Shown: positions 5,428 through 28,661 of the stretch, piece after piece
Position numbering within the stretch: the first letter of the stretch is position 1
How the letters are laid out: the number at the start of each line of letters is the position of its first letter
IMG/VR virus record: IMGVR_UViG_3300035670_000014
Coordinates: 64,001-128,000 of that record
Origin: a virus
Reading direction: 5' to 3' (one strand)
DNA: 64,000 nt
Translations under genes and position numbers: made by a program
Notes under the pieces: model-generated
What the model was told of the DNA's origin: nothing
What the model saw: only the letters and a program-made list of their open reading frames with translations
Databases searched by the model: none

Positions 5428-7860
5428 TTACCCATTGATAAATTTAATAACGCCGTTCTGTTTAAGTCTAAGAACTGCGGATCTTTCATCTACGCTGTAT
5501 TTAAAGTAGATAATAGACCCTACTTTAATCTTATCTTTATACTCCTCAACTGCATTTGGAAAGAGTGTTAGCTCAGCAACACCCGTCTTGTCCTCAACAG
5601 TGCAAGCATAAAGAGACTTGCCCTTCATCTTGCCTCTTTTTATCTGAATGTCCTCTATTCTGGTGATTACAACTAAACACCTACCAGACTGAGAGACCTG
5701 AGGTACGAGGTTATTAATGTAATCAAGTTCTATAGTAGGCGGTATTTTAATAAAGTCAATAGGGTGAGCTGAAATATATAAACCACAGTACTCACCTTCC
5801 CAGTCTACCATCTGCTTTGTGATTGATCTCTTTTCATAAACAGGAAGTTCAGGAAAAGAAGGCTCTTCTTTTGGCTTAGGAATTATAGGCTTCTTCGGCT
5901 TAGGCTCTGTATATATTTGCTTAGTACCATTCTCATCTATGACGGGAGTGGCAAGTCTGGTTATTACTTTAGTCTTGTAAAGATATTCCCAGTTAGCAAC
6001 TTCTATAGACCATTGCTCTAGTTCTTTATTCTTTAATTTTATATTAGCCTGATTCTCAAGATAAGAATCATACTGATTAAAGTAATCTAGAAGCAAAGGA
6101 AGTGAATCAACAAGGTCTTCTCTCTTGTGACCAAAAGCATCCAGTGCGCCTACTTTAGCAAGGATCGCCAAAGAGCCAGAGTTAACCTTTGATCTGTTGA
6201 TATTAGATAGCCAGTCCTTGAGAGTCTTAGCCTTGTGTACATTGCCGGCGATTAGATAGTTCGCCACAGATTTACCTATACCTTTTAGAATATCAATGCC
6301 AAATCTTATCTTGTTAGCTCCAACCTTGGCAAAGCCAATGTGAGGAGTAGTAACAGAAGGAGGAAGCATTTCTATTCCCATCGCTCTACACTCGTCTATA
6401 TAGGACTTAAGTTTATCTGGCTTATTAGACCTGAGACTCATAAGCTCAATCATAAACTCTACTGTAGAGTAAGCCTTTAGATAGGCGCAAGAGTAAGCTA
6501 TCAATGCATAAGCATAAGCATGTGGCTTGTTAAAGCCATAGCCTGAAAACTTATCAATGTATTCCCATACATAGCTTGCTTCACTCTCTGTAATCTTAGA
6601 GTTCTGAATGCAACCTTGAATAAACCTATCCTTCCACGACTGCATCTCTACTGGGTCCTTCTTACCCATTGCTCTTCTTACATTGTCAGAAGTCTCTTCA
6701 GAGAAGCCAGCAAGAACAGAAAGTGCAGCCATGCACTGTTCCTGGTAAACAAGAACACCGCCTGTCTCGGCTAGGACTGAATCAAGAAGTGGGTGAATCT
6801 TATTCTGAAGTAAGCCTGTTTTCTTGTACTCAATCCAGTCGTCAGTAAGACCATTGTCTTTAGGACCCGGTCTGATTAGTGCGCTAATAGCAGCTAAGTC
6901 TGCAACAGTAGTAGGCTGAACCTCGCTAATAACCTGGAATACATGGGACTCTTCCATCTGGAAAATGCCAGAAACAAATCCCTGGTTTATTAGCGTGAAA
7001 GCTTTAGGATCGTCAAGAGGAACCTCTTCCTGAATCCAGTCAACTGTTTTTCCGATTGCTGCTGTTGTATTCTTGAGTAGATCAAGGTTGTCAATAACAA
7101 GAATGTCAAACTTAATAAGGTTGCAATTCTTCTCAAGAGCGCCAGCTTCCCACTGAGATAAGTAGTACCAATTACCTTGATCATCTTTCTCTCCTTTAAC
7201 CTTACGTAAAGGGATATAGCTGTCCAAATAATCAGAGCCAATAATCACAGCAGAAGCATGCTGAGATTGATTCATAGGTTGCTTGTCCATTGTAGCAACA
7301 CATGAAAATACTTCTTTGTGCTGTTCTATAATCTCAGCGTAAACAGGATCATCCTTAAGGTCAATCCAGGTAGTTGCCTTACCACGATAGCTATCAGGCA
7401 GGCTGTCAGCCAAGGCGCGACCTTCTTCAAAAGTTCCACCTAGTGCTTTTGTAAAGTCAACTGTAGAACTCTTAACAGAATAAGGAGTATAAGTAGTAGG
7501 TCTAATAACACAAAGTTCACCATATTTATTCTGTAATTCTTTTATAATTACATCTTTCCCTGATGGAGAAAAGTCTGTATCTATATCTGGTCCTGCGCCA
7601 GTTACAGTAGAAGAACACCTCTTAGACTTGTCATAGTTATCACTATCAGAAAACAAGTAGAGCAATATGGAGTTACTTTTATTCTCAAGCTTCTTATTGA
7701 TATACTTCTTATCTATTACAATGCGAGTAAAGTCTTCATCGGTGATATACTTTAACTCGAATAGCAAATACCTGAAAGGTACATTCAATGTATACTTTAG
7801 ATAATCTAGCTTCTCATTAGCTTCCCTATTAACAATCTCTAGTTTAGTTTTTAAGTCCAA
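5428..7860 (-). CDS. dnaE: DNA polymerase III alpha (DnaE), C-terminal catalytic subunit of a split gene
   Basis: PDIDTDF, HASAVII, KFDIL, GIFQME, YQEQ, FSGYGFNKPHAYAY, HhH GIGK and OB-fold VEDKTG. Probable start is TTG at 7860 after GGAG (the track start is 7950). Confidence 0.92.
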   Translation of the reverse strand: MDLKTKLEIVNREANEKLDYLKYTLNVPFRYLLFELKYITDEDFTRIVIDKKYINKKLENKSNSILLYLFSDSDNYDKSKRCSSTVTGAGPDIDTDFSPSGKDVIIKELQNKYGELCVIRPTTYTPYSVKSSTVDFTKALGGTFEEGRALADSLPDSYRGKATTWIDLKDDPVYAEIIEQHKEVFSCVATMDKQPMNQSQHASAVIIGSDYLDSYIPLRKVKGEKDDQGNWYYLSQWEAGALEKNCNLIKFDILVIDNLDLLKNTTAAIGKTVDWIQEEVPLDDPKAFTLINQGFVSGIFQMEESHVFQVISEVQPTTVADLAAISALIRPGPKDNGLTDDWIEYKKTGLLQNKIHPLLDSVLAETGGVLVYQEQCMAALSVLAGFSEETSDNVRRAMGKKDPVEMQSWKDRFIQGCIQNSKITESEASYVWEYIDKFSGYGFNKPHAYAYALIAYSCAYLKAYSTVEFMIELMSLRSNKPDKLKSYIDECRAMGIEMLPPSVTTPHIGFAKVGANKIRFGIDILKGIGKSVANYLIAGNVHKAKTLKDWLSNINRSKVNSGSLAILAKVGALDAFGHKREDLVDSLPLLLDYFNQYDSYLENQANIKLKNKELEQWSIEVANWEYLYKTKVITRLATPVIDENGTKQIYTEPKPKKPIIPKPKEEPSFPELPVYEKRSITKQMVDWEGEYCGLYISAHPIDFIKIPPTIELDYINNLVPQVSQSGRCLVVITRIEDIQIKRGKMKGKSLYACTVEDKTGVAELTLFPNAVEEYKDKIKVGSIIYFKYSVDERSAVLRLKQNGVIKFING

Positions 7861-8248
7861 AGTAATCTCCGTAATCAGGTAAAGTTTCAGACAAAGCACC
7901 AAGGGTAGCAAGAACAGAGAACTCAAAAGTGGTAATACCGAAAGGAACAAACTCTAAAAGTCTAATTGAGTTTAGAATGTCAAGTTTATCAAAGTTATTT
8001 ATAAGAACAGATCCATAACTTGTCCTGTCTGCATTAATCACTTTAGTTATTCCTCTTATTTCCCTTACGGCAAGTTCAACAAAAGGTCCCTGAAAAGTTG
8101 GTGGAGATATATATGTTCCATTGGTTAATCCGGCAATGGTTACTATATAGAAATATGCAAGATTGTGACTTCTTGAATACCATGTAGGAAAACAATAGAT
8201 TGAAGAATCATCAAAATCTAATTTAAAGTAAGATTTGTTTTCACTCAT
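7844..8248 (-). CDS. Hypothetical protein between the two dnaE parts
   Basis: The ATG overlaps the end of dnaE-N (ATGAGTGA) and the 3' end overlaps the dnaE-C start; no endonuclease motif recognised. Confidence 0.65.
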   Translation of the reverse strand: MSENKSYFKLDFDDSSIYCFPTWYSRSHNLAYFYIVTIAGLTNGTYISPPTFQGPFVELAVREIRGITKVINADRTSYGSVLINNFDKLDILNSIRLLEFVPFGITTFEFSVLATLGALSETLPDYGDYFGLKN

Positions 8249-9491
8249 CAAGCTCACCACAGAAGTCAAGAGAAACTTTAACTCTACCTGGGTTTAAGAA
8301 TCTTGAAAAGTAAAATCCATTAGCAATGGGGTCCATATGCTTACCAGTAAGACCCAAAGCCCAAGCAAGGAGAGAGCCACCAGATGAACCTCTACCTGGG
8401 CCAACTGGTATGTCGTTATCTTTAGCTATCTTAATATAGTCAGCAACCATTAAGAAGTAAGAGTTATAAGAGCTATCATCAATCAGATCAATCTCGAACT
8501 TTAGTTGCTTCTTATAAGCGGGAGGAATTGGATCAGTATCTGACAAGTTAAGCCTAGACCTGAGGCCTTCAAAGGCCAGTCTCTCAAGCTCATAGAAAGC
8601 TTCCTCGTTTGACATATGGTCAAACTTAATAGGCGGATTCTTAATAGATGAAAAGAAGTAAGAGCTATCTACCATGTCTGCAACATAGCCAGTATTGTGC
8701 ACTGCTTCCTCGGGTATGTTCCATTGCCTACATAACTCCAAAGCAAAGTCTGTATCATACAACCATGCATTGTAGTCTTGTATTGGATACTTAGAATCCA
8801 GATAAGACATGTGCCATCCAATGCACTGAACTAGACCTCTAAGTTTCCATTGATCTTGATCTGACTGGTGGGCGTCAGCAGTAAGAACCAAGGGAACATT
8901 ATGCTTCTTAGAAAGAGGAATAATAAGCTGATCATTAAATTGTTTCTGAAGGTCAACATTATTAACTTGAACTTCTGCAAAGAAGTTATCTCGGCCAACA
9001 ATATCTCTAATCTTCAAGAACCATTCTTCTGCGAGGTCTAACCTGTTAGCTTTAAAGAATGTTGCCATGTGGCTGGATAAGCAAGTAGAAGTAACTATAA
9101 GGCCATCACAATGCTTAGAGAAAGTCTCTATGTCAATACGAGGAAACCTGTGAAAGCCATCACTAAAGGCATAAGTATTAAGCTTAAGTAAGTTCTTATA
9201 GCCTGTCTCATTCTTTGCAAGGCAAAGAAAGTGTCCGTTATTACCCCAGTCCTCATGTGTCTTTTCAGTAGCAGGGCCAAAAGAAAGATAAGTTTCGTTG
9301 CCAATGATTGGCTTAACTCCAGCTTTCTGACAGCCTTTTGCGAATTCTAGAACACCTGATAAAGTACCATGGTCACTTAATGCACAAGCAGTCATGCCTC
9401 TAGACTTGACAACATCACCAATCTTATCCGCTCTCTGAATGCCGTCCTTTAGAGAATTACTCGAATGAACATGTAAATGTACAAATGGCAT
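8241..9491 (-). CDS. dnaE: DNA polymerase III alpha (DnaE), N-terminal PHP and partial palm subunit
   Basis: FVHLHVHS, SDHG, TADAH, GPGRGSSGGSLLAWALGLT and FSRFLNPGR, then a stop 13 residues later. Confidence 0.92.
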   Translation of the reverse strand: MPFVHLHVHSSNSLKDGIQRADKIGDVVKSRGMTACALSDHGTLSGVLEFAKGCQKAGVKPIIGNETYLSFGPATEKTHEDWGNNGHFLCLAKNETGYKNLLKLNTYAFSDGFHRFPRIDIETFSKHCDGLIVTSTCLSSHMATFFKANRLDLAEEWFLKIRDIVGRDNFFAEVQVNNVDLQKQFNDQLIIPLSKKHNVPLVLTADAHQSDQDQWKLRGLVQCIGWHMSYLDSKYPIQDYNAWLYDTDFALELCRQWNIPEEAVHNTGYVADMVDSSYFFSSIKNPPIKFDHMSNEEAFYELERLAFEGLRSRLNLSDTDPIPPAYKKQLKFEIDLIDDSSYNSYFLMVADYIKIAKDNDIPVGPGRGSSGGSLLAWALGLTGKHMDPIANGFYFSRFLNPGRVKVSLDFCGELDE

Positions 9492-11718: not shown

Positions 11719-12839
11719 TACTTCACCTTTAACATTGAACTGAAATAAGCATCTTGCTTAAGGGTCTTTAGGATTGAGCGACCACTATCAGTTCTTGTTA
11801 TGTAAGTCAAGCAGGCAGAGAATAATTCGGGAGATTCTTTCTTAAGTCCTTGAAGTACAAGGGAAAGATTGGAAGTGTAGGTAACAGACTTCTTAGAATT
11901 TATAATGACGTCCATCAAGTCAGTCTGGCAAATCTCATCAACTATATTAATATAGTCTACAGATATAAGGTCCTTAATCTTGTTGGGATCTTCTAGAAGA
12001 TCTATTACACTTATTTGCTTCTGATAGAACCTTGACAGGTAAATGGCAGTATTAACCTTACCTATCAGGCCGTCAGATAAAGCCTCGACTGCAAGTATGA
12101 AGTCTGTTCCTTCAATGGAAATATTGTTATGCTGAGACCTGTAGGATTCAACATAGTCAAATATTCTCTTAAAGTTTGTCAAAGACCTCGGACACAGAGC
12201 AGAGTAGGAACTTATTGATTCTATATCTGCAGAAGATGTAGCTATAGGTTCAGAGATAGAAAAGTGAGAATAAGATACAAGTGACTTAAACTCAGAATCA
12301 GAAGAATCTAAAGTTGCAGATACAAAAGATTCTTTGTTAGACTCTACATAAACATGAGAGAATCTATTCTTCTCTTGTTCCTTCAGAGGCGAGCCACCGA
12401 ATCTTGCAATGTCGTAATTACCTGCAGCAAAGATTACTGTATTAGCAGGCAAAGGATACTCATGCAGGATTCTTTCTGAAAGCATTTGCATTGAGGCTGC
12501 CCTTTCCTGCTTAGCACCGAGTGGATACTCGTCAAGGAATAATACAAATAATCCTTTGAAGTCAGAAGTAGGAAGCCAGTGTGGCCTTGATCTTCGATTA
12601 ACTTTATGTCCGTTTACTTCTATGAAGTAGGGAATACCCCACTCGTCGGGCTGACAATCAGCTAGGCGTAAATCTACAAACTTTAAGTCAATTTTATTTG
12701 ACTCTGCAAACTTCTTGGCAGAAGATGCGATTATGGAGCTCTTACCTATACCGCTAGGGCCCCAAAAGAAAGTATCAATTTGACATTCTAAAGCAAGAAA
12801 GCATACCTGTTCCATCAGGTCGATGTCAATGGTTATCAA
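11718..12839 (-). CDS. MoxR-like AAA+ ATPase
   Basis: GPSGIGKS, VDLRL, LFLDE, AAGN, NRF and PRS; adjacent to the vWA gene. Confidence 0.85.
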   Translation of the reverse strand: MITIDIDLMEQVCFLALECQIDTFFWGPSGIGKSSIIASSAKKFAESNKIDLKFVDLRLADCQPDEWGIPYFIEVNGHKVNRRSRPHWLPTSDFKGLFVLFLDEYPLGAKQERAASMQMLSERILHEYPLPANTVIFAAGNYDIARFGGSPLKEQEKNRFSHVYVESNKESFVSATLDSSDSEFKSLVSYSHFSISEPIATSSADIESISSYSALCPRSLTNFKRIFDYVESYRSQHNNISIEGTDFILAVEALSDGLIGKVNTAIYLSRFYQKQISVIDLLEDPNKIKDLISVDYINIVDEICQTDLMDVIINSKKSVTYTSNLSLVLQGLKKESPELFSACLTYITRTDSGRSILKTLKQDAYFSSMLKVK

Positions 12840-13953
12840 AAGCAGGCTCCAGGCTAATTAAGCTATCAATATCAGTAGCAGGTATTTGAGCTATCTGCTG
12901 CTTTCTATGAAGGAAATCTCTTGCCTCAATCGGGGGCAAGGAATGGGCAGATGAAAGCTTAGCAAGCAACTCTGAATTACTTCTGAGTAGTTCGTAAAAC
13001 TTATCACCTTGACCCTTAAGTAGAACTTCACCAGTCTCAGGGTCAATAATTGTGTACCACTTGTTTGCGCCAAGTAGGAACCAGGGACTCTTACACCTGA
13101 TAAAGTAATTTATCAGTGACTGAATTCTGTCAATGCCGTAGTTGTGAACTACAGAGAACGTGCAAGTGGCGTGAACCTGAGCAGCTGTCTTACTCTTGAT
13201 AATAGTAGCAACTCTAGTGTCATCTTTAGAGTTAGGCTTTGTAAGTTCTATCCTTACGTCTGGATAGAATACTGCAGCCCTGCCGCCGCTAGCATTATTA
13301 CCTCTAGCACCCATTGGGGTAATGTTAACCCTAAGCTGATTTGCCATCAGGAAGAGAACATTGTTCTGTGCTGCCGAGTTCTTTAGAAACTTAAGAACAT
13401 CTGTGCCGAACCTGGCTAGAGCGCCTACGCTCTGATTGCCGATCTCTTCTGCTTTCTGCTCTGTAGGAGTCTCTATGGCAGCCCATGAATCTATTGCAAT
13501 AACAGCAACAGCTCCTGATTCCATCAAGTCCATTGCAGTATTAACAATCTCTTGGCCGTTAATAGATGGGTCAATGATAACCCGACCTTCATACCATGGG
13601 TCACCAATAAGAAAAGCAGCATACTCTCTGTCGAGAGTACCTTCTACGTCAGCAAGGTAAGCATACTTAGTTGGATACTTCTTCAGTACTTGGGCAATAG
13701 TCTCTAGAATAAGAGTAGATTTGCCGCCTGAGAAAAGGCTCTCTATAGAATACATTCTACCCATTGCAAAGCCACCTCCTAGAAGTGAGTCTAGCTCTGG
13801 GTCATTAAGAGGAACAAGTTCCCAGTCAGGAACATCAAGAGATGACAGCAAATGATTAGTCTTCCTTGACTTAGAAATAGCGTCAATAATGGCTTGAACT
13901 TTTTTAGATTCGTTTGATGAAGTGGGTTTTTCTTCTTGTGCTTTTCTTGCCAT
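12826..13953 (-). CDS. recA: RecA/UvsX-like recombinase
   Basis: LDSLLGGG, SGGKST, DVEGTLD, IAIDSWAA, NQLR and SGGRA. Confidence 0.9.
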   Translation of the reverse strand: MARKAQEEKPTSSNESKKVQAIIDAISKSRKTNHLLSSLDVPDWELVPLNDPELDSLLGGGFAMGRMYSIESLFSGGKSTLILETIAQVLKKYPTKYAYLADVEGTLDREYAAFLIGDPWYEGRVIIDPSINGQEIVNTAMDLMESGAVAVIAIDSWAAIETPTEQKAEEIGNQSVGALARFGTDVLKFLKNSAAQNNVLFLMANQLRVNITPMGARGNNASGGRAAVFYPDVRIELTKPNSKDDTRVATIIKSKTAAQVHATCTFSVVHNYGIDRIQSLINYFIRCKSPWFLLGANKWYTIIDPETGEVLLKGQGDKFYELLRSNSELLAKLSSAHSLPPIEARDFLHRKQQIAQIPATDIDSLISLEPAFDNH

Positions 13954-19521: not shown

Positions 19522-19545
19522 AAAGAGAAAAGCCCCTAGCGGGGC
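19522..19545 (-). terminator. Intrinsic terminator
   Basis: GCCCC-GCUA-GGGGC followed by UUUUCUCUUU, after the spoVG-like gene. Confidence 0.7.
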
Positions 19546-19554
19546 CCAGAACAA

Positions 19555-19995
19555 TTAGAATTGATCCATTTCGTCATCAATAATGTTCCAGGGGTCCTTT
19601 TCTTGCCCTTTCAGGGCGGGTGAGTTAATCTTAGCTGATGCCTTCTCTCTATATTCTTGAGGAATCTTAGAGTTAGATGGATTACTTTGAGGCCTTGGAG
19701 TCGAGGCAACAGAAGATCCAGAAACCTTTCGGTTATAGGCATCAAGTATTTGTCTTGAAAATTCAGGTCCTAGTTCCTCGCCTAGAACTTCTACGATGTT
19801 AACGTACTTGGTAGTACCATCGTTAGCCTGGTATGAGCGACTCGGGGCAGATACAAATGCATCGCCCTTCTTGCTCTTGATTATCTTGTAATCATTAACT
19901 TTAAGTAAGTTATTGAAAGTTACAGTAACCATACCAAGGATTGAAGAGTTTGACTTAGGAATGTAAACCTGAACATCTGTAATTTGTAATGACAT
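19555..19995 (-). CDS. spoVG: SpoVG-family nucleic-acid-binding protein with acidic tail
   Basis: ITDVQV...VTVTFNN...KII...FVSAPSR...Y.NIV...ILDAY matches the SpoVG pattern; tail ends IIDDEMDQF. Confidence 0.85.
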   Translation of the reverse strand: MSLQITDVQVYIPKSNSSILGMVTVTFNNLLKVNDYKIIKSKKGDAFVSAPSRSYQANDGTTKYVNIVEVLGEELGPEFSRQILDAYNRKVSGSSVASTPRPQSNPSNSKIPQEYREKASAKINSPALKGQEKDPWNIIDDEMDQF

Positions 19996-20004
19996 TTTTA
20001 TACC

Positions 20005-20346
20005 TTATGAATGTATTGTTAAATAACCTGAAGAGTGTAGAACACTCAATAGCGTTGGAAATGCTGATGCAAGCTCTATGCTAGGTATTAGCATGTCTTC
20101 TGCAAGTACCTCTATTGCATCATAGTGCTTAAGGCCTGACTTAAGCATTTGAATAATAATAGCCGATGAATGGCCTGAAAGGCTAGCTGCAAGGCTATAC
20201 TTATCCTTTAGGTCCGGTATAGAGTTTATTATTCCTTCAATGTTTTCTGCCTCTGAGTCATCCATAAACATATGAATGAACTGCTCCAAAGACATAGGAC
20301 CAAGGCCCGGTAAGTCTACTAATACTCTAAGTGGATTAATCTTCAT
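20005..20346 (-). CDS. Hypothetical protein
   Basis: ORF translationally coupled in the operon. Confidence 0.6.
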   Translation of the reverse strand: MKINPLRVLVDLPGLGPMSLEQFIHMFMDDSEAENIEGIINSIPDLKDKYSLAASLSGHSSAIIIQMLKSGLKHYDAIEVLAEDMLIPSIELASAFPTLLSVLHSSGYLTIHS

Positions 20347-20861
20347 TTATTAACCTGATTGAGTAACCTGTAAGAAGGAATCTTAATCATATACTTCCTC
20401 AAGAAGTATGTAATCAAGCCAGGAGTATAGACAGGTATGAACTTCCTACCTGTACTAAATGATTCCTTATGTACCATGGAGTAGTTAGTTGCAAAATCTA
20501 AGAACCAACAATACTCAGGTAAATACTTAACATTAGAATAACTAATGTAAAGATTCCTACTTCCACTAACACCAATCCAACCAGACCAGATGTTAGAAAC
20601 GTCTGGATAGTAGTTGTTAAATTGATGAATTAAAGAATGCAAGTTACACTCTTGCTCTGGGACTTCTATATCCAAAGTAGAAGATTGGGGATGCTTCTTG
20701 TAGAAAAGAAAAGAATACATAAACATATTCATTCTTTCCAAGTCTAAAATATAAAGCTCAGTAGGGCGATAGTAAGAAACTATCAGTTCCCTGAGGAACT
20801 TTAAATTATTTAGCACAGAAGTAAAGTAGAACTTTATATATTTGTATATACTAGAATCCAT
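20343..20861 (-). CDS. Hypothetical protein
   Basis: ORF overlapping its neighbours in the operon. Confidence 0.55.
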   Translation of the reverse strand: MDSSIYKYIKFYFTSVLNNLKFLRELIVSYYRPTELYILDLERMNMFMYSFLFYKKHPQSSTLDIEVPEQECNLHSLIHQFNNYYPDVSNIWSGWIGVSGSRNLYISYSNVKYLPEYCWFLDFATNYSMVHKESFSTGRKFIPVYTPGLITYFLRKYMIKIPSYRLLNQVNK

Positions 20862-21336
20862 ACCAACCTATAATTTGAGGAAGTGAAGATTTGCACAGCT
20901 CAATAAACACAAGCCACTCGCCATAAGAGAGTGGTAGCATTACTGAACTGGATGTAGCTTCATCACCAATCTTAAGAAGTCTTGATTGATAAAACTTAGA
21001 TGATGAATCATTATTTAATTGAATAGTAAGCTTCTTACCTGGCTTCTTAGCACCTGGGGTATTACCTCCAGGTACATGATAGAGGTTTAGATCGTTATTA
21101 AGTTTGTCTGCCTCTAGTAGAGATTGAATGTCAGCAATGCCTAGAGAAAACTTTATTTTCTTAGCATCTGACCAGTCATAAACCTTGTTATCCCAATCTT
21201 TACATGGAGCAAATTCCATATAGACCGCACCGCTTCTTGCATCCTTGTAACCTCCGTCCGTACCGGTCTTAAAAGGTATGAAAGATACTTGAAGTGCTCC
21301 GCTCTTTTTATAAGTTTGCCATTGCCCTCTAGCCAT
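20851..21336 (-). CDS. Whirly-like ssDNA-binding protein
   Basis: YKKSGAL, MEFAP, YDWS..KIKFSL, LYHVP and LPLSYGEW...LPQIIGW are colinear with recalled plant Whirly motifs. Confidence 0.75.
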   Translation of the reverse strand: MARGQWQTYKKSGALQVSFIPFKTGTDGGYKDARSGAVYMEFAPCKDWDNKVYDWSDAKKIKFSLGIADIQSLLEADKLNNDLNLYHVPGGNTPGAKKPGKKLTIQLNNDSSSKFYQSRLLKIGDEATSSSVMLPLSYGEWLVFIELCKSSLPQIIGWYGF

Positions 21337-21628
21337 TTGTTCCTCTTTTGTAATTAATAAAGTTTCTTAAGGTTAATAAAGTTTGGAGAAGGTAGCTATG
21401 AATCATAGGACTTATTGCATCATGGCTTTCAGCCTTCTCTAGATAGCTAATAGTAGTATCTATATTTGTATAGTCAAGGTCTGTCAGTTCCCCCACGATA
21501 TATAAATTGTGAAAGATAAGAGAATATATTAGCTCATCAGACTTGATAGGCTGAGGCCAAGATTCAATTACTTTAAAAGTCGAGTCAGCCAAAGACTTGG
21601 CTAGCTCAGGAAAAACAATTTTAGACAT
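21329..21628 (-). CDS. Hypothetical protein
   Basis: Operonic ORF. Confidence 0.55.
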   Translation of the reverse strand: MSKIVFPELAKSLADSTFKVIESWPQPIKSDELIYSLIFHNLYIVGELTDLDYTNIDTTISYLEKAESHDAISPMIHSYLLQTLLTLRNFINYKRGTNG

Positions 21629-21640
21629 TAGTTAATTTTG

Positions 21641-22024
21641 TTAATTTTTGTTTATGAAGTCCAAGATAGATTTGGACATTTTTTGTTTGAGATCCTCCAC
21701 CATTGAAGGATGAACAAGGGAGAAGAAGAAGTTACCCTGTTCAAAGTCTATTGTAACATAGTTAGTGCCATCCTCATCAAGGCACTTTACTTTAAATAAA
21801 GTTACAGGCAAGCATTTCAGTATGGACATGATGTCTGGATTGGGAGAAGACATGACGGCCATTAGAGTTTCTTTAGTTCCCATCCCGAAGGTAATACCTT
21901 CTTTATCGGAAGTGGGAAGAAAGAAAGGTCTGACTTCATAAGAAGCAGGACCTAAAGAAATGTTAACTGACTTTAATTTCAGCAGTTGTTTAAAAGGTGC
22001 ATTTGAGACTTTATGTTTCTCCAT
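21641..22024 (-). CDS. Hypothetical protein
   Basis: Operonic ORF with GAGG RBS. Confidence 0.6.
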   Translation of the reverse strand: MEKHKVSNAPFKQLLKLKSVNISLGPASYEVRPFFLPTSDKEGITFGMGTKETLMAVMSSPNPDIMSILKCLPVTLFKVKCLDEDGTNYVTIDFEQGNFFFSLVHPSMVEDLKQKMSKSILDFINKN

Positions 22025-22599
22025 CTATCCTCGGCAGTTTCATTTATCTTTTGTGTAAATAGATTAGTAGAAAAATACTGGAAGTATAAATCTAATCTAT
22101 ATGAAATCTGATAGCTCACGTTTAGGAATTCATCCTCTTCAAGATCAAGGAAGGAATCAATCAAAACGGGCTCATCAATAAAAGGATAAATAGAAGCAAG
22201 TGACTTAACAATCCTGCTAGCTAAGAAGAATAGATAGTCAGAATTGTAATCGCTCTCAAAGTCTGATTTAATAATTGGAAAATCATAAAACTCAGACAAG
22301 CCAGAGCAAGACAACCTAAGAACAAGAGTATCTTCTGTAACTCTAGCCACAAGAGAATAGCTAAAGTCAGATGGATAACTACTGATTGAAGATAAAGAGT
22401 TCTCGCCAACCTTTAAGGTTTCGATAACTTGACTATCTGGAGGAGAAGGCAAGACCTCCTGTTTAAGTGCAGGAGGCTCTGCCTTAATGTAAGGTTTCAT
22501 TTTAAATTCAGGCTTAGGCTTTAGTAGCCTATTTAGAATCTTATTAAGCAAATAGACCTCAATCGTACATACAAGCGACAAAGCCACCAAGCCAAGCAA
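21979..22599 (-). CDS. Hypothetical protein with N-terminal TM segment
   Basis: Hydrophobic N-terminus. Confidence 0.55.
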   Translation of the reverse strand: MLGLVALSLVCTIEVYLLNKILNRLLKPKPEFKMKPYIKAEPPALKQEVLPSPPDSQVIETLKVGENSLSSISSYPSDFSYSLVARVTEDTLVLRLSCSGLSEFYDFPIIKSDFESDYNSDYLFFLASRIVKSLASIYPFIDEPVLIDSFLDLEEDEFLNVSYQISYRLDLYFQYFSTNLFTQKINETAEDRWRNIKSQMHLLNNC

Positions 22600-22924
22600 T
22601 AACTTCAGTAATACTTGTCATGGCAACCCGAGTAGGAGCATCAGGGTCAGGCAAGGGAAGAGAAACATTGTTAGATGTTCTAAGATAGAATTTTGTTTGA
22701 GTATAGGAGTGATCTTCCCCTGAAGTAAGGGGGACAACTACATCCAACCTAATTCCATTTGAATTATAAGGAGAGGGGAAAGAGCCAGAATATGTTATCT
22801 GGCGAGATACATTGGTTACAGCCTTCCATCCCAGTGCAGGCATGGCCAAGACGAAAGCATCAAGATTATCTTTTACTTCTCCAACTTCGGCCGCAGAAAG
22901 AGAAAGAACAGTTGCATCACTCAT
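22559..22924 (-). CDS. Hypothetical protein
   Basis: ORF with GAGG RBS. Confidence 0.55.
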   Translation of the reverse strand: MSDATVLSLSAAEVGEVKDNLDAFVLAMPALGWKAVTNVSRQITYSGSFPSPYNSNGIRLDVVVPLTSGEDHSYTQTKFYLRTSNNVSLPLPDPDAPTRVAMTSITEVIAWLGGFVACMYD

Positions 22925-22932
22925 ATTAACCT

Positions 22933-23907
22933 CTAATCAGAAAGTATGTTTAGGAACAAAGAGATTTTCTCATGAAGCTCACTTGCTTCACTAGAAGTTA
23001 TAGTATAACCTTGTTCTTTCTTCAATAGAGAAACAACATTATCTATCTCATAAGAATGCAGTAAGACTTTATTTAGCAACTCTTTTAGAGCAGCTATGTC
23101 TGCAGAAGAAAGAGTAAGGGCATTGAATATGTAATCTCTTGCTGCCTTTATTGTAGCAGGAGCAAGAAGTTCTATATACTCAAGCATTTTATTTGCAATA
23201 ACTCTTATCTCGAACTGAGCATCAGAAGCAGTCCTTAGTCTTAAGAAGTGCAATAAGTTATGCAAGTCCATAGTTACAACAAAAGATGTGAAAGTAGCAG
23301 TAGGGAGTATACCTCTTGCTATTTCTCGTGAAACTCCTGCTTCAAGTAACTTTGTATAAGACTCATAAGAGGAGCTAATGGAGTCCCTATAGCTATCATG
23401 TAAGTCTTTCTGATCTTCAAGGTAACTTGAAGTATCAGTGCATTGTTTATTTTGTTTATGCTGGCCAAAGAAAGCATAGGGCTCATAGATCTTATCAGGA
23501 GCCTGACTATATCTATAGGATGCCTGATTATACTTGCCAGTTCTGTGTCTCATAAACTGAGCAGCAACATAGAGCGGACACTCAATGTCAAATGTAAACG
23601 AGACATGTTCAAAAGGACTAGTATGTTTATCTCGCAACAATCTCCGAAGGAGAGCAACATCGCTGGACTTCCTGGAGGTTCCCTTAGAGTAAGATCTCCT
23701 CGCAATATCTACAATGTGAGAATCTAAAGGACTAAGTGTTGAGTTCCAGTCATCCTGTATTACTTCAAGAGGAAAAGCACCAGGGCTAGCCTCTATTAAA
23801 GTAACAGAACCAAGATAGTAAGATTTATTATCAGAGTCAACTCTTTCAATAGCTGGCTCAATGTGAGAGACTTTAGAAAGTACAGAGTAGAGTGGTGATT
23901 GTGTCAT
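22933..23907 (-). CDS. thyX: Flavin-dependent thymidylate synthase ThyX
   Basis: HTSPFEH, QFMRHRTGKYNQASYRY, REIARGILP and AQFEIR. Start moved to MTQS because the track start lies inside a terminator. Confidence 0.95.
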   Translation of the reverse strand: MTQSPLYSVLSKVSHIEPAIERVDSDNKSYYLGSVTLIEASPGAFPLEVIQDDWNSTLSPLDSHIVDIARRSYSKGTSRKSSDVALLRRLLRDKHTSPFEHVSFTFDIECPLYVAAQFMRHRTGKYNQASYRYSQAPDKIYEPYAFFGQHKQNKQCTDTSSYLEDQKDLHDSYRDSISSSYESYTKLLEAGVSREIARGILPTATFTSFVVTMDLHNLLHFLRLRTASDAQFEIRVIANKMLEYIELLAPATIKAARDYIFNALTLSSADIAALKELLNKVLLHSYEIDNVVSLLKKEQGYTITSSEASELHEKISLFLNILSD

Positions 23908-23925
23908 TATATTGCTACCTAATAA

Positions 23926-23950
23926 AGTAAAAAAAATAGCCCCGAAGGGC
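23926..23950 (-). terminator. Intrinsic terminator with cUUCGg tetraloop
   Basis: GCCC-UUCG-GGGC followed by UAUUUUUUUU. Confidence 0.8.
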
Positions 23951-23976
23951 AAGGCTTTAATAAGACTAAAGTCTTA

Positions 23977-24553: not shown

Positions 24554-26989
24554 CTAAAGGCCAAATAGATTTACATTAACAGGAATATTTTGTTCTGTAG
24601 AAATGGATATACTAATAGGAATAGAGGTATCTTCTACTTCCGGGGTGTTTCTAAAATTGGAAGTTATAAAGAAGTCTGTATAAGAATAAAGGCTCGGAGT
24701 CTTTGAAGGATTCAAGTAAATAGAATTAGCATCAAGACTTACAAAATCCATAGTATTAATAATAGAATTCTTATCTAGAACTGGAGGTGAAGTTTCCGGG
24801 ACCTTTACATATTCTTGATAATAAGATTCTAGTAAATAAGCTTCTGAAATTGTAGAGATAAGTTCAAGAGCATCAAAGACATGCTGTACATCATCAATCA
24901 AATCTCTCTGTATGATGACGCCCTTCTGAGCTTCGATAAGTAAATTAACTAGTCTAACTATTTTTGGAAATGTTTGATTATCTGGTTCTAGTAAGTCAGA
25001 GGCTTCTTGAATAGATGGCAAACTCAAGAGATAGTTAGAAAGAATTGCATACAGAGGAAAAGTCTTTGAAATGAAATGACCACTCTTAACATAGGTATCA
25101 AGAGTATAGTTGTAATTTGAATGAGCATTAAATTGATGATAGCTATAATCAACAGAGTAAGAACTCTGACGAATACCACCTTCGTAACCTATCAGTGACT
25201 GATTTGTCATAGCAAAAGCGTCTACAAGTAGTTTGATCTCACTGACAATGTTAAGAGCTTTAGTTAGCTTAAAAAGCATATTTACTTGGCTGGCAGATAA
25301 GAATACAAGGCTACTCTTAAACACTATTACTTCTGTAATACCAGCAGAGACAGGCAAAGTAAACCTGTCAATACAATTATTCATCTTAAGGCCATTACTG
25401 GTAGCAGATGAATGATTGTATGTATCATTGACAGTTAACTTTGTAGAAGGAATTGCACTGTCATTAGAGACAACCAGGAATACTGAGCTATTGTTATTTA
25501 GCCAATTAAGAGGAGCAGAAGGTGCATCACTAATAAGCTTAGTCAAGCCGTTATTAGCCTTAGGAATAAAGAATGGACTAAAATCTTGAATAGTGATTGT
25601 GTCATCGTAATAATTAAAGCACATAGCAGTGCATAGATTAAAAATGTTTCTAAAGAAAGAGTCAACTGTAGAGTTAATCTCTATAGAATATTGATTATTA
25701 ATTTTGCTTGAGAGCCTTTCACTAAAAATAGCTTGAGGATTCAAATTATAAAGCCTAGAAGATATCTTATGCCTTGTCAGGGCATAGTGGGGATCAGTAA
25801 AAGCACAGCTGAGTATAGGAGATTTCTTCTTGTAAACAATAGACTTGTGATAGTCATTTGTTTCTTGAAAGCCAAATACATAAGTATCTCTGCAGGATCT
25901 CTTAAAACTCTGAGTGTAATCACTGGAAGGGGGATTATAAAGAGTGGAATCAATAAAGCAAAAGGGTGAATTATTCAAGCTATTGTAAATAGGATTCATT
26001 ATCCTATTAATGCATGCTATGAAATCTTCATAGTTAGAGTTATCAACATCACACTGCAAGTGACAGTCAACGTATGAAGATATCTCGAACTCAGAATGGA
26101 AACAAAAGAAAGGAGATAGTCCTTGTGCTCCAAAGGTATCCTTAACTTTTGTATTCATGTATTCCAGTGCTGTAATGAAAGCCTTAATTCTCATGTAGGG
26201 TGAGTCTTCAGGCATACACTGAGCATGCTTAATGTATGAAATTATATTCAAATAGAAGAAAAGAATAGTAAAATCTTTCAGCGCAATAGAAACTTCGTTA
26301 TGATTGTCGAATGATAAGTTACCGAAAGTAGTACAGATTGATTCAAAGTTGCAAGCATACAAGAACCAATTCTGCTGCGCATGAAGAAAAGACGACATGA
26401 TAGACTTGTAAGTAAACTTCTGCTTGGGGTCGCCAGTTTCCAGTGGAAGTTTAAACTGGGACCAGCAATCACCATAAGTGATAAGCTGAAAAGTCAAACA
26501 AAAGAAAAGAATATTCTTAAATATAAAAGGGTTTATCTTTTCAATAGAATAATTTTGACTTGAAGTTATAAAGTTCAGAAAGTCAATTGTAAATTCATTT
26601 GACAATATCTCTCGAAGATAGACAGCACTATCAGTATACATAAGCTCAGCAATCATTGGATGGGGAACATCCTGCAATGATTGAAAGTCTTTAAATATGG
26701 TTTTACTTCCAGTGCGTGGGTGCTGAGTCAGTATCGTTATGATCAAAGCCTTTGAGGCTTTAGAATACTTAAGCCAGGAGTCATAGTCATTAACGAACTT
26801 ACTTGCAAAGACCTCGTCGTCATCTAAATTAGAAATATTTAGATTATGCTTAAGTGCAAACTTAAACCTGAGATCAGGATTGCAAATCATCTTCATGAAA
26901 GATTGAGGCGTGATCTTGCTCAGGGTATCTGGTAATTCTACTAACCCATTTTTAATTTTGACCTTAAAGTCTGCTCTTAGATTTACCAT
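24554..26989 (-). CDS. Large hypothetical protein
   Basis: 811-aa ORF; no motif recognised. Confidence 0.75.
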   Translation of the reverse strand: MVNLRADFKVKIKNGLVELPDTLSKITPQSFMKMICNPDLRFKFALKHNLNISNLDDDEVFASKFVNDYDSWLKYSKASKALIITILTQHPRTGSKTIFKDFQSLQDVPHPMIAELMYTDSAVYLREILSNEFTIDFLNFITSSQNYSIEKINPFIFKNILFFCLTFQLITYGDCWSQFKLPLETGDPKQKFTYKSIMSSFLHAQQNWFLYACNFESICTTFGNLSFDNHNEVSIALKDFTILFFYLNIISYIKHAQCMPEDSPYMRIKAFITALEYMNTKVKDTFGAQGLSPFFCFHSEFEISSYVDCHLQCDVDNSNYEDFIACINRIMNPIYNSLNNSPFCFIDSTLYNPPSSDYTQSFKRSCRDTYVFGFQETNDYHKSIVYKKKSPILSCAFTDPHYALTRHKISSRLYNLNPQAIFSERLSSKINNQYSIEINSTVDSFFRNIFNLCTAMCFNYYDDTITIQDFSPFFIPKANNGLTKLISDAPSAPLNWLNNNSSVFLVVSNDSAIPSTKLTVNDTYNHSSATSNGLKMNNCIDRFTLPVSAGITEVIVFKSSLVFLSASQVNMLFKLTKALNIVSEIKLLVDAFAMTNQSLIGYEGGIRQSSYSVDYSYHQFNAHSNYNYTLDTYVKSGHFISKTFPLYAILSNYLLSLPSIQEASDLLEPDNQTFPKIVRLVNLLIEAQKGVIIQRDLIDDVQHVFDALELISTISEAYLLESYYQEYVKVPETSPPVLDKNSIINTMDFVSLDANSIYLNPSKTPSLYSYTDFFITSNFRNTPEVEDTSIPISISISTEQNIPVNVNLFGL

Positions 26990-27011: not shown

Positions 27012-28661
27012 TTAATTAAACAAATCCATAATTAGATGTATAGATTCTTGATTGCTAGAATCTTTAAGCAAATAATAGAAGTACGTCAGTAGACTTACTT
27101 CTGTAGATTCACTATGATTGAATGCATAGTCAACAATAGCATGTAGCTTAGAGTCAAAGTAATCAAGGTTAGGATTAAGATTACTTTCATTGCCGCTAGC
27201 CATGGTATCTTTTATATTCAAAGCATGAGAATAGAAAGAAGAAAGGACACTAAGGCTAAAAGAACGCACAAAGTAGTTCTTTATAGTAGGGTTTTCTTCT
27301 GTTGAAGTGAATGTTGAAATTGGGTTGTAAGAGTTGGTAGCGTTAGCCTTGTAGGGACTTTCTTTGAAGAAAGTATAAGGACTAAAAGGCAAGGCTCTAA
27401 CTGCCTTCTTTCCAAGAAAGTAAACAGCATAGTTGTAAGATGGATCAATAAGATAATTCTTATTCAAGAATAAAGACTCTAGATTATTTGCTGGCTCTTT
27501 ATAGAGATTAAGACTCTTAGCTTTATCTATGATAGAGCTTGAAAAATCACCAAAGGATTTACTCAAGTTAAGATTTGAAAAGTGAATATTATTTGAATGC
27601 TTACTACAAATAGATTTAGTTCCGGTATTGAAGTTCATAAAGAAGTCAATATTGGAACCAAAGAAGTTAAGACTAAAAGGCTTAGAGTGAACATTAGAAG
27701 CATTAGTAATAGGGCTAAATGTAATAGGACTAACTTTAGTAGAAGCCTCTACATCATTAGCAAGCTCAAACGAGAATAAAGAATTAATACTGGATGTTAC
27801 ACATTGAGCCATAGACTCACAAGCAGAGTCCTCATCCAAAGATGAAAACATACTATTCTTGGAGAGGCGCCTAAAGTACTCAGGAATTGAATAAGGAATC
27901 ATAAAAGGACTTGAAGTTGCAAAGACAAAGTCCTGAACGAATCCTTCTTCAAGAAGAAGAGACTGGTAATGTTCCTGGTATGGAACTTGAGAAAGAGAGC
28001 AGTATATTTTGTAGTTTGTATTTTTCAGTGTAAAAGATTCCGAAGACACACTTGCAATAAAACTACCGTCCTTAAAATCAGAAGGCTGCTTGCCATAGTA
28101 GTCAAATACATTTGGGTACTTACAGCTTACAAGCTCAAAGTTATCAACATCAGAAGTAAAGTTAAGAGTGAATGTTCCATTCTTAACAGCATTACTAATG
28201 GACTTACATACAGACTTAAACTTAGTTACAGTAGGAGAGCTCTTGTAGAGCTCAACAATGAAGTAAGCAACACTCATAGAGTAGAGGTCGATAAAAGAAA
28301 TATCTAGGTATATGTCTTCTTCGCCATTGTGAACAAATGCATCTGTATCAGTAGATGCATCATACAAGTGCTTAAGGAAGTCCCCGTAGAATATACCAGT
28401 AGAACTATACTTCTTAAAGACAGGAATGCCCAGGATGTTTTCCTTAATAGGAATATTTAGAATAAGGGCTTCACTTAGAACAGATTCCGATAAAGCAGAA
28501 CCATAACTATTTATATTAGACAAGAATACATTAAGCTTATCAGGATTAAAGTTTATAGATAAGCCAATGCTATTTTGATAAATGAATAAAGATTGTAGAT
28601 TAATGGCATCAAAAACGTTAAAAAACTCATCAGTAAATAGAGTTCTCTTTTTTCTTGTCAT
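27012..28661 (-). CDS. Large hypothetical protein
   Basis: 549-aa ORF. Confidence 0.75.
   Translation of the reverse strand: MTRKKRTLFTDEFFNVFDAINLQSLFIYQNSIGLSINFNPDKLNVFLSNINSYGSALSESVLSEALILNIPIKENILGIPVFKKYSSTGIFYGDFLKHLYDASTDTDAFVHNGEEDIYLDISFIDLYSMSVAYFIVELYKSSPTVTKFKSVCKSISNAVKNGTFTLNFTSDVDNFELVSCKYPNVFDYYGKQPSDFKDGSFIASVSSESFTLKNTNYKIYCSLSQVPYQEHYQSLLLEEGFVQDFVFATSSPFMIPYSIPEYFRRLSKNSMFSSLDEDSACESMAQCVTSSINSLFSFELANDVEASTKVSPITFSPITNASNVHSKPFSLNFFGSNIDFFMNFNTGTKSICSKHSNNIHFSNLNLSKSFGDFSSSIIDKAKSLNLYKEPANNLESLFLNKNYLIDPSYNYAVYFLGKKAVRALPFSPYTFFKESPYKANATNSYNPISTFTSTEENPTIKNYFVRSFSLSVLSSFYSHALNIKDTMASGNESNLNPNLDYFDSKLHAIVDYAFNHSESTEVSLLTYFYYLLKDSSNQESIHLIMDLFN

Follow-up and report, generated by a model that had tools for sequence, protein, structure and literature searches.

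Whirly proteins are presented in plant reviews and in a 2026 phylogenomic survey as a plant-specific family that arose at the level of Chlorophyta and Streptophyta. In a reconstitution of plant organellar recombination, Whirlies, not canonical single-stranded DNA-binding proteins (SSBs), potentiate RecA strand exchange (bioRxiv 10.64898/2026.10.24.761589), and in StWHY2 the KGKAAL motif's second lysine, K67, is needed for assembly of 24-mers and for cooperative binding (PMC3245945). The phage and bacterial cases called Whirly in the literature searched were assigned by fold only, namely ChmC, the N-terminal domain of Shedu and DUF1508 of Menshen; according to its authors, no similarity in sequence between ChmC and known proteins can be detected (PMC11077065). 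Here we describe a Whirly gene carried by a phage. It lies in a stretch of 64,000 nucleotides, hereafter the window, which comprises bases 64,001-128,000 of the 170,948-bp virus record IMGVR_UViG_3300035670_000014 from IMG/VR. The record has direct terminal repeats and is estimated to be 100% complete, which bears out the phage origin assumed in an earlier note made from the sequence alone. We conclude that the encoded protein is a real phage Whirly, functional and under strong constraint; the host range is unexpected for the family, and the literature searched contains no description of such a protein.

The gene and its translation start occupy the following positions of the window:

20851..21336, minus strand: Whirly-family gene, an open reading frame (ORF) of 161 amino acids (aa) with an ATG start and a TAG stop.
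21337..21350, minus strand: ribosome-binding site AAGAGGA of the Whirly gene, 5 nt 5' of the ATG and within the 3' end of the upstream 99-aa gene, read from the sequence.

These boundaries agree exactly with those first proposed, and AAGAGGA is a strong Shine-Dalgarno sequence. The protein has no targeting peptide and no C-terminal tail, its sequence ending in ...IIGWYGF, three residues past the GW motif. It matches the Pfam Whirly profile PF08536 with 50.3 bits (E 2.9e-13) over profile positions 2-133 of 136, against a curated gathering cut-off of 23 bits, and a six-frame search of the genome reproduced the match. When all PDB chains were searched with phmmer, the significant matches were plant Whirlies only: AtWHY1 (4koo) at 1.4e-8, AtWHY3 at 3.6e-8, potato PBF-2 p24 at 1e-7 and WHY2 at 2e-7. 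The profile for OB-fold SSBs, PF00436, gave no match to the protein, which also lacks the acidic C-terminal tip.

HMMER alignments with plant Whirlies of solved structure keep in register, far beyond chance, all the motif pairs listed in the earlier note (phage/plant: YKKSGAL/YKGKAAL; MEFAP/LQFAP; YDWSDAKKIKFSL/YDWSRKQVFSL; LYHVP/FFHDP; LPLSYGEWLVF...LPQIIGW/IPVTKAEFAVL...MPYLLGW). A family-wide core was defined as positions with the same residue at ≥60% in each of two groups, 55 phage and 38 eukaryote-like sequences. All 20 such positions are present in the window protein; Y9, K10, A14, G36, E41, A43, YDW53-55, K60, F63, H87, K101, L103, P135, G139, E140, P153 and G157 are among the residues kept, a pattern that supports retention of an ancestral nucleic-acid-binding function. 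The complete KGKAAL motif was not found: YKKSGAL keeps the first lysine (K10), and the second is replaced by Ser12. Lysine occupies this position in 66% of the eukaryote-like rows versus 24% of the phage rows. Owing to the serine, the phage protein should act as discrete tetramers, and with the second lysine absent it is not placed in the higher-plant WHY1/2/3 subfamily.

An AlphaFold2 model based on a 40-sequence alignment (pLDDT 92.9, pTM 0.86) has the order of elements E-E-E-E-H-E-E-E-E-H, that is, a tandem b-b-b-b-a arrangement, with the first beta-strand beginning at residue 6. In a Foldseek search against the PDB, ranks 1-16 were all plant Whirlies, including those of potato and Arabidopsis, at TM 0.71-0.78 (E 5e-9 to 7e-8), and other Whirly-like folds scored far lower, with TM about 0.57 for MRP1/2 and about 0.38 for Pur-alpha. 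The nearest structure to the ESM Atlas model of the protein was a Streptophyta Whirly cluster (TM 0.82); when sequence features are compared instead, the closest clusters of the Atlas carry the label Uroviricota. Three runs with four copies of the protein predicted a tetramer (ipSAE 0.92), the best control reaching 0.04; contact agreement was at least 83%, partner pLDDT at least 88, and the predicted interface is on the two helices, at residues 67-79 and 137-158. In calibration, 20 of 30 solved homomers attained the mark applied to this score, as did 1 of 23 single chains. Because plant Whirly tetramers are in the PDB, the predicted tetramer shows likeness to those, and its high score, which may reflect the model's memory of the solved structures, is no independent demonstration of binding. 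The modelling suggests that the two helices most likely hold the protein together as a homotetramer; judging by homology and the retained core, it most likely binds single-stranded DNA (ssDNA) with its outer beta-sheets, in the manner of plant WHY1/2. Its sequence, predicted fold and predicted assembly mark the 161-aa protein as a genuine Whirly-family member. The earlier claim of a viral member of the plant family is thus upheld by the profile hidden Markov model, the structural match to WHY proteins, the predicted tetramer and a phylogeny with phage and eukaryote-like rows, described below.

Selection on the gene was assessed with two related contigs, L011 and L012, which are identical to each other in the Whirly gene. 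Between the window and L011 the gene has 30 synonymous and 0 non-synonymous differences, corresponding to 93.6% nucleotide and 100% amino acid identity, with a synonymous divergence (dS) of 0.36 and a non-synonymous divergence (dN) of 0. The other 18 syntenic genes have 57-96% amino acid identity to L011 and dN/dS values of 0.03-0.27; among the proteins of known type, RecA is 93.9%, PhoH 96.0% and ribonucleotide reductase 90.2% identical. Whirly is therefore the most constrained protein of the 19 syntenic genes. On contigs from four further studies we found a single difference in the Whirly gene, at 21127, which is synonymous (Ile70, ATT>ATC), and three differences in the adjacent 172-aa gene. 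A point that weighs on the other side is that the dS of Whirly, 0.36, is below that of most neighbours (0.56-0.95), so that the identity to L011 could partly reflect recent segment exchange or constraint at the codon or nucleotide level. Even so, a ratio of 30:0 is incompatible with neutrality, and selection on the protein is strongly purifying.

The window protein is one of a large family. An exhaustive HMMER search over 1.84 billion cluster representatives (E ≤ 1e-3) found 159 Whirly homologues, of which about 100 are short, 135-181 aa without N-terminal extension, and 40 are 200-318 aa long, with extensions resembling organelle-targeting or signal peptides. These eukaryote-like homologues have 30-150 extra N-terminal residues, and the closest of them are only about 30% identical to the window protein. 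Ten short-form lineages were inspected, consisting of the window with L011/L012 and of P0002, P0005, P0009, P0164, P0046, P0166, P0028, P0107 and P0155; all ten are on phage-like contigs of large uncultured phages, several of them 116-199 kb in length. Ribonucleotide reductase is encoded within 10 kb of Whirly in 8/10 lineages, RecA and PhoH within the same distance in 6/10 each, and SpoVG, usually within 1.5 kb, likewise in 6/10. Further neighbours in the ten lineages include rIIB, an AAA ATPase, DnaE, a Holliday-junction resolvase, DNA ligase and, in one case, a reverse transcriptase. The last belongs to the P0107 lineage, in which the reverse transcriptase (RVT_1, 302 aa; L014:6864-8456) is just upstream of Whirly with a 75-aa ORF between them, ThiF preceding the reverse transcriptase and ribonucleotide reductase and RecA following. 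The proximity of Whirly and SpoVG is kept in the window, L002, L003, L013, L015 and the P0046 contig although the Whirlies themselves are only 25-30% identical, an arrangement for which there is no published explanation.

A tblastn search with the window Whirly, P0164, P0046 and P0166 against 50,697 GenBank phage records gave no match, PHROGs has no family for the protein, and a related-locus search with the single Whirly protein found no relative in viral contigs or genome contigs; word-indexed protein searches contributed little more. PF08536 was absent from 14/14 control genomes, cellular prokaryotes not being otherwise surveyed. The absence from cultured-phage databases and PHROGs implies that such proteins are routinely annotated as hypothetical.

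The phylogeny was obtained by maximum likelihood from 146 sequences (quick search, LG+G4); the tree is unrooted, and it was drawn from a library without taxonomy in which named algal sequences are unplaced. The window Whirly is sister to P0002 (SH-aLRT 95) and belongs to a group of 55 rows, all short save one of 195 aa, whose deep branch has a support of only 89. A separate clade of 55 rows, with support 96, holds 38 of the 40 eukaryote-like sequences; it also includes short sequences, and at least P0028 among them is carried by a phage. In an approximately unbiased (AU) test, placing the 38 eukaryote-like rows as one clade apart from nine verified phage rows was not rejected (p-AU 0.88), and eukaryotic Whirlies may thus be of single origin, surrounded by phage diversity. 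The earlier note had suggested that this phage gene might be relevant to the origin of organellar Whirly. The window copy lies outside the phage lineage nearest the eukaryote-like clade, and the unrooted tree gives no direction of transfer.

All window genes are on the minus strand, and the window also holds six tRNAs. Its replication and nucleotide genes encode a DnaE-type polymerase, RecA, a class II ribonucleotide reductase, ThyX, Dam methylase, UDG, PhoH, a sigma factor and SpoVG; to judge from the sequence, the recognisable genes are typical of the replication and nucleotide module of a large tailed phage. The polymerase is ≤28% identical to anything among the 50,697 deposited phage genomes, and 15 kb of the window matched nothing by megablast, indicating a phage lineage without cultured relatives. 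Apart from the probable source, a subsurface metagenome, 11 studies have freshwater, aquatic and riverine metagenomes in which 57-84% of the 31-mers sampled from the region occur, and the phage is therefore widespread in fresh water; no RNA data set is among the sequencing runs listed. Genes that bear on the proposed function of Whirly are these:

12826..13953, minus strand: phage RecA recombinase, 375 aa (PF00154, E 6.3e-26), the proposed functional partner.
19555..19995, minus strand: SpoVG-family gene, 146 aa (PF04026, E 2.5e-13), of a nucleic-acid-binding regulator family.
L009:1258-1857 (genome about 129,359-129,958, roughly 1.4 kb past the window end), minus strand: SSB of 199 aa (PF00436, 35 bits).
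L010 (genome 128,079-128,306): second PF00436 match.

The phage genome thus has two matches to the OB-fold SSB profile, both just past the window end. The 199-aa SSB consists of an OB domain, a Gly-rich linker and an acidic tip, ...EDEALPF, like that of bacterial SSB. Its sequence looks G+C-rich and Ala/Gly-rich against the 36% G+C of the phage body.

With moderate confidence, we favour a role of the phage Whirly as an accessory ssDNA-binding factor of RecA-dependent recombination, repair or replication restart. The protein would coat or remodel ssDNA and help the phage's own RecA, and it would work beside the conventional OB-fold SSB and not substitute for it. Such an accessory role is probable given the gene neighbourhood and the plant precedent; the plant reconstitution and the recurrent proximity of RecA make it the best explanation. 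In addition, because a canonical SSB with an acidic tip is encoded and Whirly is tail-less, the replicative SSB role is probably already filled, leaving Whirly as a second, specialised ssDNA binder. Of the two functions offered in the earlier note, SSB or recombination factor, the second therefore has the stronger support. Several points count against the accessory role. In 4/10 lineages no RecA gene was found within 10 kb, and a common location in a large replication module says little about any specific partnership with RecA. Among the close neighbours the most constant is SpoVG, a regulator that binds RNA or DNA, and plant WHY1 and phage ChmC bind RNA too. Finally, ssDNA binding by the phage protein, its tetramer and any interaction with RecA are alike inferred.

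The attachment to SpoVG leads to the alternative that survives best, which we nonetheless consider unlikely: that Whirly mainly binds RNA and acts on phage transcripts, affecting their stability, translation or localisation, like ChmC or maize WHY1 and perhaps together with SpoVG. ChmC prefers single-stranded RNA, with a dissociation constant of 58 nM compared with 184 nM for ssDNA (PMC11077065), the Whirly-fold proteins MRP1/2 bind guide RNA, and SpoVG, within about 1.5 kb in 6/10 lineages, is here probably part of the same transcription unit. The structural comparison argues the other way, as the phage protein is far nearer in sequence and structure to the ssDNA-binding plant Whirlies than to MRP1/2; moreover, it lacks the disordered N/G-rich tail of ChmC, and the genes around it belong to DNA metabolism.

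Slightly less likely still is that Whirly is the main replicative SSB, its fold replacing the OB fold at the replication fork. The family binds ssDNA, the gene sits in the replication module by DnaE and nucleotide-synthesis genes, and the extreme constraint is typical of abundant proteins with many partners, such as SSBs. What speaks against this role is the presence in the genome of the two PF00436 matches, one of which combines a Gly-rich linker with a partner-recruiting acidic tip, and the lack of any tail in Whirly. We regard as improbable a function in host takeover or counter-defence, in which Whirly, as an abundant binder of single strands, would compact or mask DNA, or would hide ssDNA intermediates from defence sensors. 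Plant Whirlies compact nucleoids (PMC9070903), bacterial defence systems (some Shedu and Menshen sensors) sense nucleic acids through sPC4/Whirly-like folds, and fast-evolving genes flank Whirly here; counter-defence genes, however, are usually fast-evolving and patchy themselves, whereas Whirly is the most conserved of its block and is syntenic in the replication module across deep phage lineages. That the gene is a eukaryotic (algal) Whirly cDNA, captured recently and without function, or else the product of a chimeric assembly, as the previous restriction of the family to plants and algae might suggest, is refuted by the 30:0 ratio as evidence of selection, by the same neighbours and overlaps in the independent assemblies L011 and L012 and the presence of the gene in 11 further studies, by the about 100 clusters of short homologues on large phage contigs with the nearest Atlas clusters in Uroviricota, and by the low identity of even the nearest eukaryote-like sequences.

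The accessory ssDNA-binding role is preferred on these grounds, and the immediate surroundings of the gene are as follows:

19530..23956, minus strand: putative transcription unit ThyX - orf121 - orf206 - orf127 - orf99 - Whirly - orf172 - orf113 - SpoVG, with tight or overlapping spacing.
21329..21628, minus strand: 99-aa gene upstream of Whirly, whose stop overlaps the Whirly start by 8 nt (ATGGCTAG).
20343..20861, minus strand: 172-aa gene downstream of Whirly, whose ATG overlaps the Whirly stop by 11 nt (ATGGATTCTAG).

Terminator-like hairpins at 23956-23938 and 19547-19530, both consensus matches only, bound what is putatively one transcription unit from ThyX to SpoVG. The first hairpin (23938-23956) overlaps the listed TTG start of ThyX (22933-23952), and the ThyX orthologue in L011 is 15 residues shorter (324 versus 339 aa); the true ThyX start is therefore probably further downstream. 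In L011 the order of the block is 99-aa gene, Whirly, 172-aa gene, 112-aa gene, SpoVG, and the overlaps of 8 nt and 11 nt recur there. The 99-aa gene keeps its position in both L011 and L012, its product is 87.9% identical to that of L011, and it has no Pfam or PHROG match. Owing to the 11-nt overlap, the 172-aa gene is probably translationally coupled to Whirly. It is fast-evolving (78.5% amino acid identity to L011), and its product has no Pfam, PHROG or Atlas match and only marginal similarity (E 0.004) to the positional counterpart in L002, the P0002 phage. The model of the 172-aa protein is of low confidence (pLDDT 54.9), and its best fold match, with Z 5.5 to an unrelated rhodanese, is not convincing. 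Profiles for Rad52_Rad22 and RecT (PF04098, PF03837) had no match in the phage genome, nor had the gp32 profile, for which the control genomes were likewise blank and the result hence uninformative.

Other parts of the window show peculiarities of their own. The polymerase gene is divided:

5428-9491, minus strand: DnaE-type Pol III alpha split in two ORFs, N-terminal 416 aa and C-terminal 840 aa, both matching phrog_405.

A 141-aa ORF overlaps the junction, and the same split is present in L011, L012 and the P0046 contig. The ORFs at 24554-26989 (811 aa) and 27012-28661 (549 aa) have no Pfam or PHROG match; at about 57% identity to their L011 orthologues, compared with about 90% for their neighbours, and dN/dS of 0.23-0.26, they are the fastest-evolving in the block. 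The 400-aa ORF at 10516-11718 matches PHROG 1314, annotated 'HNH endonuclease', and has a dS of 0.38 to L011, low like that of Whirly, but a dN/dS of 0.14; in more distant relatives the gene in this position, just upstream of PhoH, has DUF2201 domains. Between 52000 and 60000 the G+C content rises from about 36% to 45-52% with a strongly negative GC skew. This segment, in which several tRNA genes lie and numerous ORFs overlap on the two strands, may be an island of foreign origin or of distinct composition.

The phage branch, which is large, has diverged deeply and is under strong selection, alters the picture of Whirly as an innovation of the plant lineage, which surveys up to 2026 have maintained, and turns the origin of organellar Whirly into a testable phylogenetic question. 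In the replication modules of large uncultured phages, the phage Whirly would constitute a second, non-OB class of ssDNA-binding protein. The Whirly, RecA and SSB genes of a single phage offer a minimal system, with no targeting peptides and no paralogues, for the recombination function of Whirly, which has only recently been reconstituted for plants. A more far-reaching idea, which we put forward tentatively and consider doubtful as a whole, is that phage Whirlies are the older and more diverse, that the green-plant and algal organellar Whirly came from a large phage, and that the phage Whirly is an accessory factor dedicated to RecA. Such an origin would be parallel to that of the phage-type RNA polymerase of organelles, of Twinkle and of Pol IA/IB. 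If the idea is true, the Whirly-RecA-SSB triad of plant organelles is a phage invention, which could be reconstituted from three genes of one phage.

Among the known systems, the plant organellar Whirlies (PBF-2 p24/StWHY1, StWHY2, AtWHY1/2/3; PDB 1l3a, 3n1h, 4koo, 4kop, 4koq) are the nearest and belong to the same PF08536 family. They have in common with the phage protein the tandem b-b-b-b-a fold and a core including K10, G36, YDW, K60, F63, H87, K101, E140 and GW, and the helix-mediated homotetramer predicted for the phage protein matches the plant one. In plant organelles as in the phage, Whirly coexists with RecA and a bacterial-type SSB in one genetic system. The phage protein differs in being phage-encoded, in having neither an organelle-targeting peptide nor a variable C-terminal extension, and in an identity to the plant proteins of only 22-26%. 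The Whirly-like proteins of green algae and Marchantia (PMC9070903) likewise lack the full KGKAAL motif and are encoded, as in the phage, by a single copy per genome; unlike the phage Whirly, they are eukaryotic, nucleus-encoded and organelle-targeted.

ChmC of the Chimalliviridae (PhiPA3 gp61, PhiKZ gp67, Goslar gp176; PMC11077065) is likewise a phage product of Whirly-type fold that binds single-stranded nucleic acids. Its homotetramer was shown experimentally, whereas that of the phage Whirly is predicted. ChmC is built of b-b-b-a repeats and forms condensates by means of a disordered C-terminal tail with N/G-rich and S/D/E-rich parts; it prefers RNA and functions in mRNA export from the phage nucleus. 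The phage Whirly is set apart from ChmC by this description, as it is a PF08536 sequence member with four strands per repeat, no tail and a place in a DNA-metabolism module. The N-terminal domain of Shedu type 1A and DUF1508 of Menshen NsnA fall in the same broad fold superfamily and are proposed single-stranded nucleic-acid binders; these sPC4/Whirly-fold sensors are bacterial, dimerising half-repeat domains fused to nucleases or other effectors, assigned by fold only and not PF08536. OB-fold SSBs (bacterial PF00436 and T4 gp32) provide the working analogy for the phage Whirly, that of oligomeric, sequence-independent ssDNA binding in replication and recombination, with a fold unrelated to Whirly and, in the bacterial type, an acidic tip that Whirly does not have.

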